The position numbers were made by a program, and so were the translations under genes. DNA of 6,305 bases from Promethearchaeota archaeon (GTDB lineage Archaea; Asgardarchaeota; Thorarchaeia; Thorarchaeales; Thorarchaeaceae): NCBI GenBank assembly GCA_027031765.1, contig JALVPN010000008.1, forward strand, positions 1 to 6,305, in the 5' to 3' direction. The notes below the pieces were generated by a model, which saw only the letters and a list, made by a program, of their open reading frames with translations, did not search any database and was not told where the DNA came from. This document shows positions 1-6,305 of this stretch, one piece after another; the stretch's first letter is position 1; every line of letters starts with the position of its first letter.

Positions 1-112
1 CCGGCCTGCGAACACAGGGGTCCCGTGCTGCCCCACAGGGACAGCTACTTGGAGCGGATCATCTGCGGGGCCAGGCCGTGCCCCACGACTCAGCTCAGGA
101 GCACCCTGTCAC

Positions 113-571
113 TCACTCGGGACGTACGGACATGATGCCACCGACCTGGGACATGGGACTGTTGCCCACGTCCTGGCCGTCCTCATCAACAACGCCCCAC
201 TGTCCGGGCATCTCCTCCGGGAACGGCCACTGTGCCACGAGCACCTCACGGACGGTGGCCGATGGTGGCCCACGTATCAGGTACTCACGCTGATGGCCCT
301 CAAGGCGCACGACCCGTACCACCACATCCGAGTCGGGTGTGTCAGGCTGTTCGATGAACGGCATCCGTGTGACGAAGGAGGTGCCCGCCAGCATGGTGTT
401 CACTGCCAGACACATTGCCGACAGGAACAGGACAAAGGTCGCAGGCACCACCACTCGCGGGTCGAGGGGGAGCACATGATGGCCACCTAGGTAGGCCAGT
501 GACAGGCCCACGGCTAGGACTATCAGCCCGCCCGCACATATGCGGGTCATTCTACCGACTGCACGTGTCAT
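113..571 (-). CDS. Small membrane protein: two N-terminal TM helices plus a putative ubiquitin-like (beta-grasp) C-terminal domain
   Basis: ORF 113..601 in the track, with in-frame starts GTG 601, ATG 571 and ATG 550 (start uncertain). Hydrophobic segments ICAGGLIVLAVGLSLAYLG and VVVPATFVLFLSAMCLAVNTMLA. The last ~70 aa (VVVRVVRLEGHQREYLIRGPPSATVREVL...QWGVVDEDGQDVG...IMSVRPE) follow the ubiquitin strand-strand-helix-strand-strand pattern. No C-terminal di-Gly. Confidence 0.7.
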   Translation of the reverse strand: MTRAVGRMTRICAGGLIVLAVGLSLAYLGGHHVLPLDPRVVVPATFVLFLSAMCLAVNTMLAGTSFVTRMPFIEQPDTPDSDVVVRVVRLEGHQREYLIRGPPSATVREVLVAQWPFPEEMPGQWGVVDEDGQDVGNSPMSQVGGIMSVRPE

Positions 572-659
572 ATAGACCACCGACTTGGGAGCTGACAACA
601 CGACCCTGACGCATGGACACTCCCCTAGCCGTGCCGGACAGACGCAGCACGCGACACCA

Positions 660-675
660 CACCGGAACGCCGGTG
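660..675 (-). other. Small hairpin just downstream of the GTPase stop codon
   Basis: CACCGG-AACG-CCGGTG is a perfect 6-bp stem with a 4-nt loop, extendable by two G-U pairs on the minus strand. It lies 15 nt after the GTPase stop. No U-tract follows, so its function is unknown. Confidence 0.3.
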
Positions 676-690
676 CACCCTGAGACCACG

Positions 691-1281
691 CTACGGGCGG
701 CGGAACACCGTCTGCTCCGCCTTCTTCGCCTCCGCCTCGGCCATCATCTCGAGCAGTGAGTGGAATGCCGTGGATATGTTCTCGCCAGTCTTGGCGGACG
801 TCTCGATGAACCTAGCCGGTACACCGAGCTTCTCGATGAAGTGCTCCGTGAAGGCCACACCCTGTTCGGTCGTGACCTCAGGACCATTGGTCGTACCACG
901 GAGGTCGACCTTGTTGCCCACGATTATGGTGGGTGGGAGGTAGCCCAAGTTACGGTACGCCTCAACGAGCCACTTCGAGGCGTTGTCAAAAGAGGTGGGG
1001 TCCGTGATTGAGTACACCAGTATGATGCCGTTCGACCCGTGGTAGTAGTGTCCGCGCACCTGTTCAAAGGAGGGCTGGCCGGCCAGGTCCCACAGGATGA
1101 ACTTGATCACCTCGCCGTCGTACAGGACCCGTTTGGTCGCCAGGTCAACACCGATGGTAGCAAGGTGGCCTTCTATGAACTCTTCGCCAAGGTAGTTGCG
1201 GCGCATGCTTGTCTTGCCGACAGCCCCGTCGCCTATCAGGACCGCCTTCAGGATTATGCTTCCGTCGTCCTGGTCGCGCAT
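691..1281 (-). CDS. Ras-superfamily small GTPase, Rab-like
   Basis: All five G boxes are present: G1 GDGAVGKT, G2 ATIGVD, G3 WDLAGQ, G4 NKVD, G5 ETSAK. Rab-family-like motifs are IGVDL, KFILW, YYHGS and LVYSIT. ATG 1281 has GAGTGAGG upstream (SD-like), and an upstream in-frame TTG lies at 1302. Confidence 0.96.
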   Translation of the reverse strand: MRDQDDGSIILKAVLIGDGAVGKTSMRRNYLGEEFIEGHLATIGVDLATKRVLYDGEVIKFILWDLAGQPSFEQVRGHYYHGSNGIILVYSITDPTSFDNASKWLVEAYRNLGYLPPTIIVGNKVDLRGTTNGPEVTTEQGVAFTEHFIEKLGVPARFIETSAKTGENISTAFHSLLEMMAEAEAKKAEQTVFRRP

Positions 1282-1302
1282 CAGTCTTTCCTCACTCTGC
1301 AA

Positions 1303-1609
1303 GGGCCTCTAAGGGCGCCAACAAAGAAAAGTCTTGTCACACGTGACGACGGAGTGCGCCCGGGCGGGGCCACCGGGGGCTTCTCAGCCAAGACCCTGAG
1401 GTCCGAGTCTGCATGGGCCCGGTGATGGGAGGGCCGTGGTGGTCAGCAGATGTGACCCGGTCTCTGACGGCACCGTCTTTGCGGGCTCGGGGACGAGACT
1501 GGTCCGGAGTGGCGGGTCTCGGACTGGACGGCACACACGGTGCAGGCACAGGCTGGGGTCAGTATACACAAAGTAGAAAAACGACCGGTGGGCGCCGGGC
1601 TCGGTCACA
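1303..1609. promoter_or_regulatory. Divergent intergenic region with A/T tracts at both ends and a self-complementary GC-rich core
   Basis: The region lies between divergent genes. A-rich tracts ACAAAGAAAA (1321-1330) and ACAAAGTAGAAAAA (1568-1581) each sit ~30-50 nt from a start codon. Palindrome GTCAC-AC-GTGAC at 1336-1347. No canonical TTTAWA TATA box is seen. Confidence 0.45.
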
Positions 1610-2356
1610 ATGGTGGAACTGGTGTTCGGGGACCTCGCGACAGTGGACATTGTCCTCGCTGTGTTGACAGGTGTGTGCGGTTCGGTCGTCCTCGCGGCGG
1701 CCTACAGGATGGCAAACAGTGGAGTCCCGAACTGGAAGTCGAGGAAACTGGTACACGTGACTGTGGGCACACTGATCGGCCTCACAGTCATGGGCTACAC
1801 GAACCTGAGTGGCCCGGCGCTGGCAATAGTACTGTTCCTGGTGGTGCTGCTGTATGCATGGGCCCACAAGAGCGACCTGGTCTTCGACCTGCTGGTGGCA
1901 GGCAGCCGCGAGGGCGAGAGCAGGCTGAACACGTTCGCTTCCGGGCTCATGGGCGTGGTGGCATTTGGTGCGGTGTTCGTCCTGTTCTTCTCAAGGCCGG
2001 AGATCTTCGTGGCGTCAATCCTCGCGGTCGCATGGGGTGATGCCGCGGGAGAGGTCATTGGTAGGCCGTACGGTGGCAGGTTCATCAGGAAACGGTTCAG
2101 GAAGAAGTCCTTCGAAGGCGCGCTGGCAGTGTTTGTGTTCACATTGCTGGGGATTGTCTCAGCGCTCGCCGTCTACTCCACGGAGGTCAGCCCACTAGCG
2201 TCGCTCCCGCAGATAGCACTGATTGGTCTCGTCGTAGCACTCATAGAGGTCCTGTCAATCGGGTGGACCGACAACTTCTTCATACCACTCGTGACTGCGG
2301 GGCTCATGTGGCAGCTGCTCTTCCCTGGCATGCCGCTGCTGCTGTTCTCAGGCTAG
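1610..2356 (+). CDS. CTP-dependent polyprenol/phytol/dolichol/diacylglycerol kinase family integral membrane protein (COG0170/SEC59-VTE5-DGK1-like)
   Basis: About 7-8 hydrophobic segments. N-terminal SRKLVHV motif, CTP-binding signature WGDAAGEVIGRPYG...KKSFEGALA, and C-terminal TDNFFIP. ATG start and tandem TAG TAG stop. Confidence 0.88.
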   Translation: MVELVFGDLATVDIVLAVLTGVCGSVVLAAAYRMANSGVPNWKSRKLVHVTVGTLIGLTVMGYTNLSGPALAIVLFLVVLLYAWAHKSDLVFDLLVAGSREGESRLNTFASGLMGVVAFGAVFVLFFSRPEIFVASILAVAWGDAAGEVIGRPYGGRFIRKRFRKKSFEGALAVFVFTLLGIVSALAVYSTEVSPLASLPQIALIGLVVALIEVLSIGWTDNFFIPLVTAGLMWQLLFPGMPLLLFSG

Positions 2357-2402
2357 TAGGGTGCTGGGCCGGTGAGGGCCGCATGACGACCCACGTAGCG
2401 GC

Positions 2403-3335
2403 TCACCACTCATCCTCGAAGTGCAGGACAGGTTCGACCGGCCCATCGTAGTCGCTCATGCGCTCAATGCCCGACTCGCCCAGCTCACACACGAGCTTCA
2501 GTTCGCTGAGGATACTTGCCCACCCGATGTCGTAGCCGACCGCAGCCTCCGGCGTACGGAACCCGTAGTGGTGTAGCACGACGAGGGTGTCCTCGCCAAC
2601 CTGCTCGAACCGTACGTTCACCCGGGTCTCGAGCTCATCACCGTACACCCACGAGAACTCGATTTCCTTCTCCGGCTCCATCTTCGTGAACACAACCGGG
2701 CCCATGCCCTCGCCCCACCACGTGTATATCCCCGCATACCGCCGGTCAACACGTGGGCTGGTAGCACGGATGAAGTGGCGGAGCTTCTCCGGGTTCGTCC
2801 ACACATCGAAGGGCAGGGACGGTGGCGCCCGGCAGAGCACACTCATGCGCACCTCGGTGGGGTCGTACCGTGTCACGCGCAGGGGGTGGTACTTGGAATA
2901 GTCGAAACGCACTGCGGGCTCGCCGAGTTCGACAACGGACTTGAAGTTTGCCAGCAGTAGGTTCCAGTGCTCGGCCATGTGCAGGTCCTTGGCAGCCGAC
3001 GGTATGGCCCCGTGTCGCACCTCGAGCACCGAGTAGGTGGGCCGTTCCGCGAACCGCAGGAGGAACAGGGTGTCAGCACCGAGCACCCGCCACAAACACA
3101 GCACGGCCTCCTTTGGCTTCATGCGCTTGATCTCCCACTGTCCGCCCAGGTCCGTTGTCGCAGGCGCATTGTCCCCCATGAACTTGATGGCGCCGCCCTC
3201 CTCCAGGTCAGTGTGGATCTCGTTGCCAAGCCACTGTACCATCAGTACCGGGTCGAAGAACAGGTCCCAGACCTCAGTCGCAGGACGCGCAAAACGGACC
3301 ATGACGCGTAGCACTGGTAGCACTTCGTCAGGCAC
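2403..3335 (-). CDS. Tandem SRPBCC (AHSA1-like / START superfamily) domain protein
   Basis: Two repeats of the AHSA1-like pattern: RFARPATEVWDLFFDPVLMVQW...LEVRHG...HWNLLLANFKSVVE and CRAPPSLPFDVWTNPEKLRHF...IEFSW...VVLHHYGF...GWASILSELKLVCE. Probable start is GTG 3335 (alternatives GTG 3347, ATG 3302). The track's 423-aa N-terminal extension looks non-coding. Confidence 0.85.
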   Translation of the reverse strand: MPDEVLPVLRVMVRFARPATEVWDLFFDPVLMVQWLGNEIHTDLEEGGAIKFMGDNAPATTDLGGQWEIKRMKPKEAVLCLWRVLGADTLFLLRFAERPTYSVLEVRHGAIPSAAKDLHMAEHWNLLLANFKSVVELGEPAVRFDYSKYHPLRVTRYDPTEVRMSVLCRAPPSLPFDVWTNPEKLRHFIRATSPRVDRRYAGIYTWWGEGMGPVVFTKMEPEKEIEFSWVYGDELETRVNVRFEQVGEDTLVVLHHYGFRTPEAAVGYDIGWASILSELKLVCELGESGIERMSDYDGPVEPVLHFEDEW

Positions 3336-3374
3336 TCCATCGCCCACCCTTGAAAGTCCTATCAATGGACTATG

Positions 3375-3541
3375 GGCACACACCCTTATCTCTGTGACGG
3401 CAGGCACAGGGGACTGTCTGGGTGACCGACTGTCGCCAGTTGGGTCCACGGAGGTCTCGCCCTGTGCACTCGGTGTCCCGTGCCTACTCTCCCACGACCG
3501 GCAACAGGGTCTACGTGGTAGGGGACAGGGGGGTGTGTGCC
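3375..3541. repeat. 167-nt intergenic element bounded by an 11-bp perfect inverted repeat, with internal stems
   Basis: GGCACACACCC (3375-3385) pairs with GGGTGTGTGCC (3531-3541). Internal pairs are GCACAGGG/CCCTGTGC (3404-3411/3460-3467), TGTCCC/GGGACA (3474-3479/3522-3527) and CCACG/CGTGG (3492-3496/3514-3518). No target-site duplication is evident. Confidence 0.5.
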
Positions 3542-3556
3542 GGGCATGCTGCACCA

Positions 3557-3578
3557 CCAACACAGGCGAGTGTGTTGG
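3557..3578. other. 8-bp hairpin downstream of the minus-strand membrane-protein gene
   Basis: CCAACACA-GGCGAG-TGTGTTGG lies ~55 nt beyond the stop at 3634. There is no U-tail on either strand, so it is not called a terminator. Confidence 0.3.
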
Positions 3579-3633
3579 AGAAGAGAGGGGCCCGGGGTGG
3601 TACTGTCGTGCCATCCCTTCGTACCCGTGTGGC

Positions 3634-4068
3634 CTACTCAATCGCGCGGTACACAGGCCACCGACGCGACCCATAGGCGAACAGAAGTCCGGACCAGAGG
3701 GACCGGAGGAGGGATTCGGTGGGGTTGTCCGACCACGGGTTGCCAGGGCCCAGTAGCAGAGACCTCAAGGTGGGATAGTAGGTGAGGAACAACACGGCCC
3801 CGAGTAGGAGCACGACCACGGACCGCACCAACAGGTTCTTCGACAGTATGTACTTCTCCGGCCAGTTGTCGAGGAACAGGGAGACCACTATGACGGCAGC
3901 GATTGGCCAGTCGGCCAGGGCCGTGTTCACGTACACGATGCCGGTCGGGAAGGCGGTAGTGCCAACTGAAACACTGACGTCGAGGACTGCCGCGAATGCC
4001 GGTACAATCACGGCGACGAGAACCCCAGCGACGTAGAGCGTGACAAGCCCACGCAACGTGCAACACAC
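3634..4068 (-). CDS. Multi-pass membrane protein of unknown function, probably an N-terminally truncated fragment
   Basis: Third positions are strongly G/C from ~4044 to the stop. There are about 4 hydrophobic segments and three W-P motifs (ADWPI, DNWPE, RRWPV). No ATG or SD is seen at the start of the coding-like part (GTG 4068 and TTG 4056 are possible starts). The track's extension to 4167 is not hydrophobic and overlaps the hydrolase remnant. Confidence 0.6.
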   Translation of the reverse strand: MCCTLRGLVTLYVAGVLVAVIVPAFAAVLDVSVSVGTTAFPTGIVYVNTALADWPIAAVIVVSLFLDNWPEKYILSKNLLVRSVVVLLLGAVLFLTYYPTLRSLLLGPGNPWSDNPTESLLRSLWSGLLFAYGSRRWPVYRAIE

Positions 4069-4089
4069 CAGTGCAGCCAGGCCTGTTCT

Positions 4090-4359
4090 TGGTTGTCTGC
4101 TTGGGCTCACGACCGCGAGGCCGTGCTCGCAACAGCCGCCTCTGTATGGTTCCACGTCTGCGAGCACCTCAAGAGTTTCAGGGTGCTAACACTCCTCATT
4201 GTCGGCGAGAAGGACATTGCCACTCCCGGCTGGCCCTCATAGATGCTACGCGACTGGCGGCCGGACCAAGACGTGGTGGTGCTCCCCGGGACCGGACACC
4301 TTGTTGTCATTGTCCGCGCCGGCGAGTTCGACCGTCATGTAGAGGGATCCCTCGGATGA
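4090..4359 (+). pseudogene. Alpha/beta-hydrolase C-terminal remnant with an in-frame TAG
   Basis: Frame +1 reads WLSAWAHDREAVLATAASVWFHVCEHLKSFRVLTLLIVGEKDIATPGWPS*MLRDWRPDQDVVVLPGTGHLVVIVRAGEFDRHVEGSLG*. Acid motif LLIVGEKD (Asp 4213-4215) and His motif LPGTGH (His 4297-4299) are 28 codons apart. TAG at 4240-4242, TGA at 4357-4359. No start codon or GxSxG nucleophile lies upstream in frame (TGA at 3967-3969). Confidence 0.72.
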
Positions 4360-4529
4360 CATGCAGTCCCACCGTGATGAGATGGCAGACGCGATGCACA
4401 AGGGGTCGTGGGCGGCATGGTAGGAGGTGGGCCCAGTAGGCCCACTGGAGTGTGCCACGGAGAGTGAGAGTGGGACAGCCCGCATGGCCGTGACACGCGC
4501 CGTCAGCATGGACACGCAGGGACGTGGGG

Positions 4530-5414
4530 TCACTGGGAGACCGAGGCGGCACCGGCCCGCAAGAGGAGTCGGAGCACGGAGGGGACGACCAGCTCCTCGA
4601 ACTCATGGTATGGTACGTGGCCGACGAACTCAAGCTCAGCCTTCAGCTCCCTCTTGGCGGACTCGTCCAACGAGTGCCAGCGGTTGTGCTGGTACATTAC
4701 GCTGACCGGGTGAAAGAGTCCCGCGTCAGCAAGGGCCCGGAGGTGTTTCTCATATCCCACGGCCATACAGATGACAGTGACTATTGACTCCACAAGTGAC
4801 GTGAACTGTTTCGACGCCATCGACCGCGAGTGCTGTCGGACGACGGCACGGATTTCCGCCTCCGAGGGCGATGCAAGGCGCAGCTGGCCAAGGATGCTCT
4901 GCATGTTGTTGCCACCCTCCACGTAGGGTACCAACAGTGTGCCCCCAACAGCCACGAGCTCGGCGGAGGAGAACAGTGCAGCACACCCACCACCTACGAG
5001 CTGTTCGGAGACCTCGAAGAGCAGGCAGTTCTTGAGGTCCTCGACAACGGCGTCGTATTCCTTGAAGTCGGGCATCTCGTCGACCAGTCCAAAGATGTCG
5101 TTGTCGTAGCCCCTGAACGCATACAGGCCAAACATCTTCAGCAGGGCCCGTCTGGCCCCAAACCACTGGTCGCGGTAGAGACCGGCCAGCGAGTCACCAA
5201 GTTCCTTCCACGTCCTGTCCCACCCGACGGCGTGGACAGATGAACGCACTGTACTGCGTAGTGTCTCATCATTGAGGGTGGCCACAGCCCTCGGGATTGA
5301 CAGGGCCTTGCCACGGTACGCTCGGTTCGGCGTCAACAGGTGAGCCCCCGTACTAGTATGTATGACAACGCCCGTATTAAGTGGTCTGTATGCCACTCGA
5401 CCCCGACCATCCAC
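4530..5414 (-). CDS. Hypothetical soluble protein (~295-306 aa)
   Basis: Long open frame with G/C-rich third positions and a globular, acidic/helical composition. No motif recognised. Start uncertain (TTG 5450 or GTG 5414). Confidence 0.7.
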   Translation of the reverse strand: MDGRGRVAYRPLNTGVVIHTSTGAHLLTPNRAYRGKALSIPRAVATLNDETLRSTVRSSVHAVGWDRTWKELGDSLAGLYRDQWFGARRALLKMFGLYAFRGYDNDIFGLVDEMPDFKEYDAVVEDLKNCLLFEVSEQLVGGGCAALFSSAELVAVGGTLLVPYVEGGNNMQSILGQLRLASPSEAEIRAVVRQHSRSMASKQFTSLVESIVTVICMAVGYEKHLRALADAGLFHPVSVMYQHNRWHSLDESAKRELKAELEFVGHVPYHEFEELVVPSVLRLLLRAGAASVSQ

Positions 5415-5800
5415 CCCCAGCGACCACGGCCCCGACCAGTGGGACTGCAAGAGACGTGTCTGCCCAGTGGCTCCTTGCTAGCCCAGCAGTCGGACCGTGC
5501 CGGGTGTGTGTGGCTAGGCAGAGCGTTCAAGACTGCAACAGGACACCGGGTCACGGAAAGCAGCCCCGCGGCTCCCTCTCCCAGTAGTCTGGGCCGTGAC
5601 TGTGCTGTCATGGGACTGGAGGAGGTGCCCACAGACTTGACGACGTGGGGTGGGGCGTCTAGAGAGCTGTCCGGGCGCGACCGCCTTGGCCCGGGCCTCC
5701 CCCCACGGGGTCTCCTTTCAACCGTGTAGGAGAGCCGTGATGGCGGTGAGGGGACGGACGGTGGTGCGTATGGTGCCTGCTCGCACCGACCACACTGCCG

Positions 5801-6232
5801 TCATGGCTCCATCATCTTCACAAGGGCCTCCCCATCGAGGACAAGTTCGCCGTCCTGGTTGGTACAGGTCGTGCGGAGGCGCAGTCGCAGTCGTCCGGGC
5901 TGCTTCTCAATGACCTCAACGCGCGCAGTGACCGTGTCGCCGATGCGCACCGGTGCGAGGAAGCGCATACTCTGACTGAGGTATATTGTCCCCGGCCCTG
6001 GCAGTTGCATGCCAATGGCAGTGCTGACAAACGAGGCTGTGAGGAGGCCGTGGGCTATCCTGCCACCGAACACTGTGTTCTTGGCCCACTCCTCGTTGAA
6101 GTGAAGGGGGTTGTAGTCACCGCTCAGGTCACCGAAGGTCTGGATATCTTCCTCGGTAACAGTGTGTACCACTTCGGCCGACTGGCCCACCTCAACGTCA
6201 CCGAACCGCGTAACGTGTACCCGTTCGTTCAC
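5801..6232 (-). CDS. MaoC-family (hotdog-fold) dehydratase, (R)-specific enoyl-CoA hydratase/PhaJ-like
   Basis: Catalytic signature DIQTFGDLSGDYNPLH (Asp/His dyad) followed by FGGRIAHGLL, PGPGTIYLSQSMRFLAPVRIGDTV and the terminal V-L-D-G-E-A strand. GTG 6232 is preceded by SD-like GGAGTGAG. An upstream ATG lies at 6262. Confidence 0.93.
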   Translation of the reverse strand: MNERVHVTRFGDVEVGQSAEVVHTVTEEDIQTFGDLSGDYNPLHFNEEWAKNTVFGGRIAHGLLTASFVSTAIGMQLPGPGTIYLSQSMRFLAPVRIGDTVTARVEVIEKQPGRLRLRLRTTCTNQDGELVLDGEALVKMMEP

Positions 6233-6305
6233 TGTACTCACTCCACTTGACGACCAGTGCATTCTATGACGAGCCGATACCAGTTGCCGTCCCGGGTCTT
6301 TCCGG

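Follow-up and report, generated by a model that had tools for sequence, protein, structure and literature searches.

The sequence analysed here, which we refer to as the window, comprises bases 1-6305 of a 7.7-kb contig (contig C8, JALVPN010000008.1) in a metagenome-assembled genome of Thorarchaeaceae (GCA_027031765.1; 2.95 Mb, 229 contigs, 95% complete). It carries, on the minus strand, a gene for a Rab-like small GTPase that lacks cysteine, followed by a gene for a small protein with two predicted transmembrane helices and a C-terminal domain of the beta-grasp (ubiquitin-like) fold. An earlier note on this DNA described the pair and proposed that the second protein could be a membrane receptor or effector that docks the unlipidated GTPase. 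The gene order itself is confirmed, and the features that matter to this proposal are as follows.

691..1281, minus strand: Rab/Ras-like small GTPase, 196 residues from ATG 1281; the longest open reading frame, to TTG 1302, has 203 residues.
572..690, minus strand: intergenic spacer, 119 nucleotides to ATG 571, 89 to GTG 601 or 140 to ATG 550.
113..571, minus strand: gene for the protein with two transmembrane helices and a beta-grasp domain, 152 residues from ATG 571; the open reading frame to GTG 601 has 162 residues.
479..538, minus strand: transmembrane helix 1, residues 22-41 in the 162-residue numbering, which is used throughout for this protein.
383..451, minus strand: transmembrane helix 2, residues 51-73.
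116..331, minus strand: C-terminal beta-grasp domain, residues 91-162.

The two genes are thus separated by 89, 119 or 140 nucleotides according to the start chosen, in good agreement with the 90-140 given in the earlier note, and ATG 571 is the start that a gene caller has selected elsewhere for the beta-grasp gene. Read directly, the spacer is GC-rich. By eye it contains no oligo-T terminator. Nothing in it clearly resembles a TATA/BRE element except for its single AT-rich stretch, a TCTATAT at about 573-579, which runs into ATG 571 and might serve for a leaderless transcript starting at ATG 550. Judged from these features, both co-transcription and independent transcription of the two genes are possible. 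The sole sequencing run that holds the sequence is a DNA run from a hydrothermal-vent metagenome, and no RNA run is among the holders.

An independent NCBI assembly contains a contig (JAGSHO010000481.1) that is 99.945% identical to the window over positions 1-3625 and has the same order of four genes, and a Logan contig of 2296 nucleotides crosses positions 480-1400 without a mismatch. Because both of these carry the junction between the two genes, we take it to be real DNA. The second assembly and the Logan contig probably go back to one and the same vent sample, that of the window, such that their independence is that of the assembler only. The arrangement is found in none of the relatives examined (see below), the contig is short and the window begins at its very end, all of which would fit an assembly chimera within a metagenome-assembled genome. 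Set against the two further contigs and a GC content that is even across the junction, this explanation is very improbable.

The identity of the GTPase is clear. Its open reading frame (691-1302) matches the Pfam Ras family (PF00071) with an E of 5e-41 and a score of 140.4 bits, the curated cut-off being 21.6; Roc and Arf also match, but less well. Its best relatives in the PDB are Rab1A (E 5e-31) and a Thorarchaeota Rab (7ezb, E 2.7e-30). All of the motifs G1-G5 are intact (GDGAVGKT, the switch-I threonine within ATIGVD, DLAGQ, NKVD and TSAK), and among 16 orthologues they vary little or not at all. Given that the motifs for GTP binding and hydrolysis are complete, the protein should switch with nucleotide. 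All 15 orthologues begin MRDQDDGS or MKDQDDGS, and the true start is for this reason probably ATG 1281. Orthologues, 64-77% identical, are present in 59 of 60 Thorarchaeaceae genomes, and their alignment (A3) has a mean column identity of 82%. There are no cysteines in the 203 residues and none in the orthologue tails, and the C-terminal CC, CxC or CAAX cysteines by which eukaryotic Rabs are geranylgeranylated are not present. The genome has 27 Pfam Ras matches. Of its Ras-like paralogues 15 were examined, and in 14 of these the last 10 residues are likewise free of cysteine, so the cysteine-less tail does not single this GTPase out.

The closest characterised protein is Thor-Rab (PDB 7ezb; Tran et al. 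2024, PMC10933270), with which the GTPase shares the Ras/Rab core with all G motifs (E ~1e-30) and a short tail without C-terminal cysteines. In that work Thor-Rab was found to lack a cysteine tail, homologues of REP and geranylgeranyltransferase were not found and membrane targeting was not seen (PMC10933270). The window GTPase is a different paralogue from the crystallised protein and belongs to its own highly conserved orthologous group. This group also differs from Thor-Rab at the C-terminus (window 691-735), where in 12 of 16 orthologues an acidic stretch leads into a terminal [FY][IVM]G, for example LFIG, HFVG or IFIG (loci L028, L030, L032, L035, L036, L042, L044-L046 and L048-L050). 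Two further orthologues carry IFQG followed by four more residues, while the window protein (VFRRP) and that of locus L027 (IYRSKV) retain the aromatic residue only. On a Rab-like GTPase devoid of cysteine, this tail may represent a site of modification or a short linear motif conserved at the C-terminus.

The neighbouring protein is also much as the earlier note had described it. Its two hydrophobic segments reach Kyte-Doolittle maxima of 2.14 and 2.17; a basic N-terminus with a net charge of +4 precedes the first, and the second follows a short loop of net charge 0 with a conserved G-x-L/I-P/N-L/V-D-P motif. Since the charges are +4 and 0, the positive-inside rule would place both termini, and with them the beta-grasp domain, in the cytosol. 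AlphaFold2, run on the whole protein with a 13-sequence alignment, predicts a helical hairpin (helices 6-40 and 48-78), a linker of low confidence and a compact C-terminal domain, at a pLDDT of 85.5 for the protein as a whole. Modelled alone, the last 72 residues give a pLDDT of 95.2 and a pTM of 0.82, with elements in the order beta-beta-alpha-beta-beta (strands 4-10 and 16-21, helix 27-34, strands 45-48 and 66-71). Positions R96, V97, E106, W125-P126-F127, W135 and D144 are conserved in our alignments A1 and A2.

The 50 best Foldseek matches to this domain in the PDB are all beta-grasp, most with TM-scores of 0.63-0.72. They include ubiquitin and its variants, NEDD8, ISG15, SUMO and UFM1, the Ras-binding domains (RBDs) of B-Raf and RGS14, the SPN domain of SHANK3 bound to Rap1, and also TmoB, EccD (7npt, 6umm) and MUB (4x57). 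An exhaustive VIA-align search returned 266 chains at Z≥5, the best rows of which are again all beta-grasp, headed by the RGS14 RBD (Z 8.6), the ubiquitin-like domain of TINCR (8.2) and the RBDs of RAF1 and BRAF (8.0 each), with Rad60 SLD2 at 7.7; rows within one Z unit are to be read as ties, and models that have no clear relative often reach a best Z of around 8. Judging by these models, the beta-grasp fold is settled and the subfamily is not, with RBDs and ubiquitin-like proteins tied. At the sequence level, Pfam gave no match at E≤10 for 13 family members, including to PF00240, PF02196 (RBD) and PF00788 (Ras-association, RA), and NCBIfam was also empty. A profile search of PDB sequences with alignment A2 returned only spurious short matches (the designed protein Tako8 and glycosidases), which we rejected. 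The most likely role for the domain, as modelled, is that of a protein-protein interaction module.

A profile of the domain identified 126 representatives in a set of 1.84 billion proteins. Nearly all have 75-230 residues and carry the domain C-terminally, and some consist of the domain alone. Of 76 Thorarchaeaceae genomes, 54 were found to contain it; a further 224 genomes, from 29 other Asgard families, yielded none. The family was seen only through genome searches and this profile search; a word-indexed search with the whole protein returned nothing other than itself. In the literature we found neither this family described nor any pairing of a GTPase with a beta-grasp protein in Asgard archaea. 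On sequence grounds, then, the domain is a new, Thorarchaeaceae-restricted family of what would be membrane-tethered proteins. The number of copies per genome is one to six, and two or three of them often stand in tandem (as on G029:C430, G035:C75, G019:C4, G267:C59 and G009:C6), which indicates repeated local duplication; the window genome has two copies, on contigs C8 and C146. The same hairpin, including a G-x-L-P-L-D-P loop, is seen in a 182-residue protein (L024:1441-1989, plus strand) that has a TPR-like helical C-terminal domain instead, with similar matches in genomes G006, G021 and G031. This suggests that the hairpin is a reusable membrane anchor for different interaction domains.

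Whether the pair stays adjacent in relatives was the first check proposed for the docking idea, and here the result is negative from both sides. The window genome is the sole member of its genus (g1) among the genomes searched. A tblastn search of 24 loci with GTPase orthologues located no beta-grasp gene within 1.5 kb, and a beta-grasp hidden Markov model that recovered every positive control gave no match around 80 orthologous or paralogous GTPase loci (flanks up to 10 kb, 1.15 Mb). Conversely, no GTPase was found within 1.5 kb of 14 loci with homologues of the beta-grasp protein. Among 31 family members at 23 loci with 6-kb flanks the only GTPase-adjacent copy is that in the window, as it is among 37 members at 30 loci from 30 genomes when a GTPase within 1.5 kb is sought. 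With 27 Ras-family matches, two beta-grasp genes and some 3100 genes, the chance of one such adjacency in the window genome is about 3%; for the 31 members in relatives, at some 30 GTPases per 3100 genes, about 0.6 adjacencies would be expected, compared with the one observed, which is that in the window. The single adjacency is about what chance predicts and is therefore not significant.

How the two genes came together can be read, at least in part, from the relatives. In at least nine genomes, from the genera that we label g4, g5, g6, g8 and g13, the GTPase orthologue lies upstream and a member of the beta-grasp family 12-28 kb downstream on one strand. The contigs concerned are G003:C3 (16 kb), G007:C110 (14.5 kb), G012:C12, G026:C39 and G035:C75 (each about 12 kb), G019:C4 (28 kb), G064:C3 (15 and 27 kb), G074:C4 (27 kb) and G080:C6 (27 kb). 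In G003 the member 16 kb downstream of the GTPase on the same strand is the best orthologue of the window protein in that genome (39% identical); it begins 27 nucleotides after a gene for a 1692-residue protein of the S8 subtilase family and is convergent with a TauE gene. The best matches in the window genome to the genes that intervene in G003 lie on other contigs, namely the S8 gene on C73, the P-type ATPase gene on C144 and the TauE gene at the end of C92. Synteny with G003 would predict that C8 adjoins C92; no sequence overlap was found between them, and the link between these two contigs is one suggested by synteny only. The simplest reading of this pattern is that an old, loose linkage was compacted by rearrangement in the lineage of the window genome. 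Since downstream neighbours of the GTPase differ in almost every genus, this flank seems to be prone to rearrangement. In G062 a 72-residue fragment (L029:2141-2359, minus strand) lies just downstream of the GTPase orthologue and carries a CxxC...NAARNI zinc-ribbon motif, which we take to be typical of the TnpB proteins of IS200/IS605 elements.

We consider it probable, then, that two real Thorarchaeota genes were made neighbours by a lineage-specific rearrangement, and a functional link between them is not supported. The GTPase, as one of about 27 Ras-superfamily members in the genome, would act as a nucleotide-dependent switch, and the hairpin, with both its ends predicted to be cytosolic, would hold the beta-grasp domain of about 70 residues at the cytosolic side of the membrane. 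The genes that once intervened would now be elsewhere in the window genome, leaving the two as neighbours that may be co-transcribed. Several observations sit less comfortably with this explanation. The same-strand adjacency, the short GC-rich spacer and the absence of a visible terminator are compatible with an operon in the window genome. Three of the four best VIA-align matches are Ras-binding domains, and the linkage over 12-28 kb, seen in five genera, may signify something beyond inherited synteny. In addition, the assignment of the beta-grasp domain as an interaction module draws on fold and architecture only.

The adjacency, the spacer and the RBD matches also speak for the docking idea of the earlier note, in which the beta-grasp protein is a membrane-anchored, RBD/RA-like receptor or effector for the GTP-bound, lipid-free GTPase and the two genes form an operon. 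The predicted cytosolic orientation would suit such a role, as would the match to the SHANK3 SPN-Rap1 complex, and Thorarchaeota Rab has been described as lacking both a prenylated tail and a known route to the membrane (PMC10933270). Further, by our reading of the alignments, switch I of the GTPase is acidic (EEFIE) and the beta-grasp family keeps arginine or lysine on beta1 and the helix. The RGS14, RAF1 and BRAF RBDs have the same fold and align over 68-70 residues with a root-mean-square deviation of 2.4-3.0; this structural match is equalled by ubiquitin-like proteins, however, and is not accompanied by RBD, RA or ubiquitin similarity in sequence. The domain also differs from eukaryotic RBD/RA effectors in standing on its own transmembrane hairpin, where theirs are found within a soluble kinase or guanine nucleotide exchange factor. 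The pair is conserved in none of the relatives examined although most of those genomes have both genes, and the cysteine-less tail that it shares with most of the paralogues examined leaves this GTPase with no special need of a receptor. The complex of the GTPase (A3) and the beta-grasp domain (A2), with GTP and Mg, was predicted twice, each time with a score of 0.00 where the mark is 0.32; this prediction was made without controls and counts neither way. Taken together, the description of the two genes in the earlier note stands, whilst the proposed functional coupling between GTPase and receptor fails on conservation and is in our view unlikely. A related possibility is that the family as a whole provides RBD-like membrane docking sites for prenylation-less Rab-like GTPases, normally in trans, and that in the window one such pair has been rearranged into a single transcription unit. 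If true, this would represent a pre-eukaryotic route to GTPase membrane targeting by way of a protein receptor, but we regard it as rather improbable.

It is instructive to compare the protein with other membrane-bound and soluble members of the fold. Like the MUBs of plants and animals and the EccD/YukD ubiquitin-like domains of type VII secretion, it is predicted to hold a ubiquitin-fold domain at the cytosolic face of the membrane. The means of anchoring is different in each case: MUBs are anchored by C-terminal prenylation, whereas the C-terminus of the window protein has no cysteine or CAAX motif and its anchor is the N-terminal hairpin of two transmembrane helices, and EccD has an N-terminal ubiquitin-like domain followed by 11 transmembrane helices, the reverse of the order seen here. 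The protein is also small (about 150 residues), and its occurrence is limited to a single archaeal family. With ubiquitin, SAMP and other conjugatable modifiers it shares the beta-beta-alpha-beta-beta topology (TM-scores of 0.63-0.72 to ubiquitin, NEDD8, ISG15 and SUMO), but it lacks their C-terminal Gly-Gly, the window protein ending ...SVRPE and the termini of the family being variable. Given this, and given that it would be fixed in the membrane at its N-terminus, the protein could not be a conjugated modifier.

The surroundings of the family elsewhere raise the question of whether it belongs to protein turnover or peptidase biology, for example as a ubiquitin-like adaptor, tethered to the membrane, for peptidases encoded nearby or for enzymes of the JAB type. 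In the orthologous group of the window protein itself, the recurrent neighbours are the S8 subtilase and TauE genes. In genus g4 and in G015 the gene immediately before the beta-grasp gene, in the same orientation, encodes a large protein of the S8 subtilase family, the gap in G003 being the 27 nucleotides noted above; the genes are L051:12499-17577 (plus strand, 1692 residues) in G003 and L138:2858-6187 (plus strand, 1109 residues) in G015, where a gene for a 406-residue GTPase-domain protein precedes it. An M29 (thermophilic metalloprotease) aminopeptidase gene recurs near a second orthologous group of the family, one to four genes away in eight loci and mostly divergent (among others L052:11061-12125, L053:1709-2791, L142:4974-6038, L149:7387-8448 and L151:6852-7919). 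The nearest predicted structures in the ESM Atlas (TM-score 0.81, root-mean-square deviation 1.6-1.7 over 69 residues) are hypothetical proteins, mostly of Thermoplasmatota archaea, and in one of these clusters, of 567 residues, all members have a JAB (JAMM) domain. Against this, the neighbours vary between orthologous groups and may be the inherited synteny of close relatives, and the N-terminus of the S8 protein reads as hydrophobic and signal-peptide-like, which would probably make it extracellular, away from a beta-grasp domain predicted to be cytosolic. The lack of Gly-Gly also argues against such a role, E1, E2 and JAB genes were not found nearby, and neither of the peptidase genes adjoins the beta-grasp gene in the window genome, whose best S8 match, on C73, stands without a beta-grasp neighbour. 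A role in protein turnover is for these reasons unlikely.

Two further genes of the window belong to the conserved neighbourhood of the GTPase.

1610..2356, plus strand: polytopic membrane protein of 248 residues, divergent from the GTPase gene, with no Pfam or NCBIfam match.
2403-3674, minus strand: AHSA1-domain gene, open reading frame of 423 residues.

In genera g5 and g14 the conserved neighbours of the GTPase are the divergent 248-residue membrane protein and the AHSA1 gene, both of which are also present in the window, and tblastn places the former beside the GTPase in loci L029, L032, L034 and L035 at 53-57% identity. Its motifs GD..G..IG..YG and S.EG are what we take to be a resemblance to CTP-dependent polyprenol (dolichol/phytol) kinases. 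A paralogue of this membrane protein adjoins a homologue of the beta-grasp protein in G030 (L015:510-1274). The AHSA1 open reading frame has a long Pro/Arg-rich N-terminal extension that is probably untranslated, the gene being called at 310 residues on the near-identical contig L155, and a further open reading frame (3634-4167) overlaps its 5' end.

The means by which the small GTPases of Asgard archaea, lacking lipid anchors, come to membranes bears upon the origin of eukaryotic membrane trafficking (PMC10933270). Because the gene pair is a juxtaposition in one genome, this locus does not answer the question of GTPase membrane targeting, and it serves as a caution that function deduced from a single adjacency can mislead in genomes with dozens of GTPase genes. 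What has been gained by following it up is a new, confidently folded and lineage-confined family of membrane-tethered proteins of the ubiquitin/RBD fold in Thorarchaeaceae. The cytosolic beta-grasp domain is small and soluble, and would make a cheap reagent for pull-downs with the 27 or so GTPases that such a genome encodes. With a fold that is both RBD-like and ubiquitin-like, in an organism that is rich in anchorless GTPases, the family represents a reasonable target for a binding experiment.

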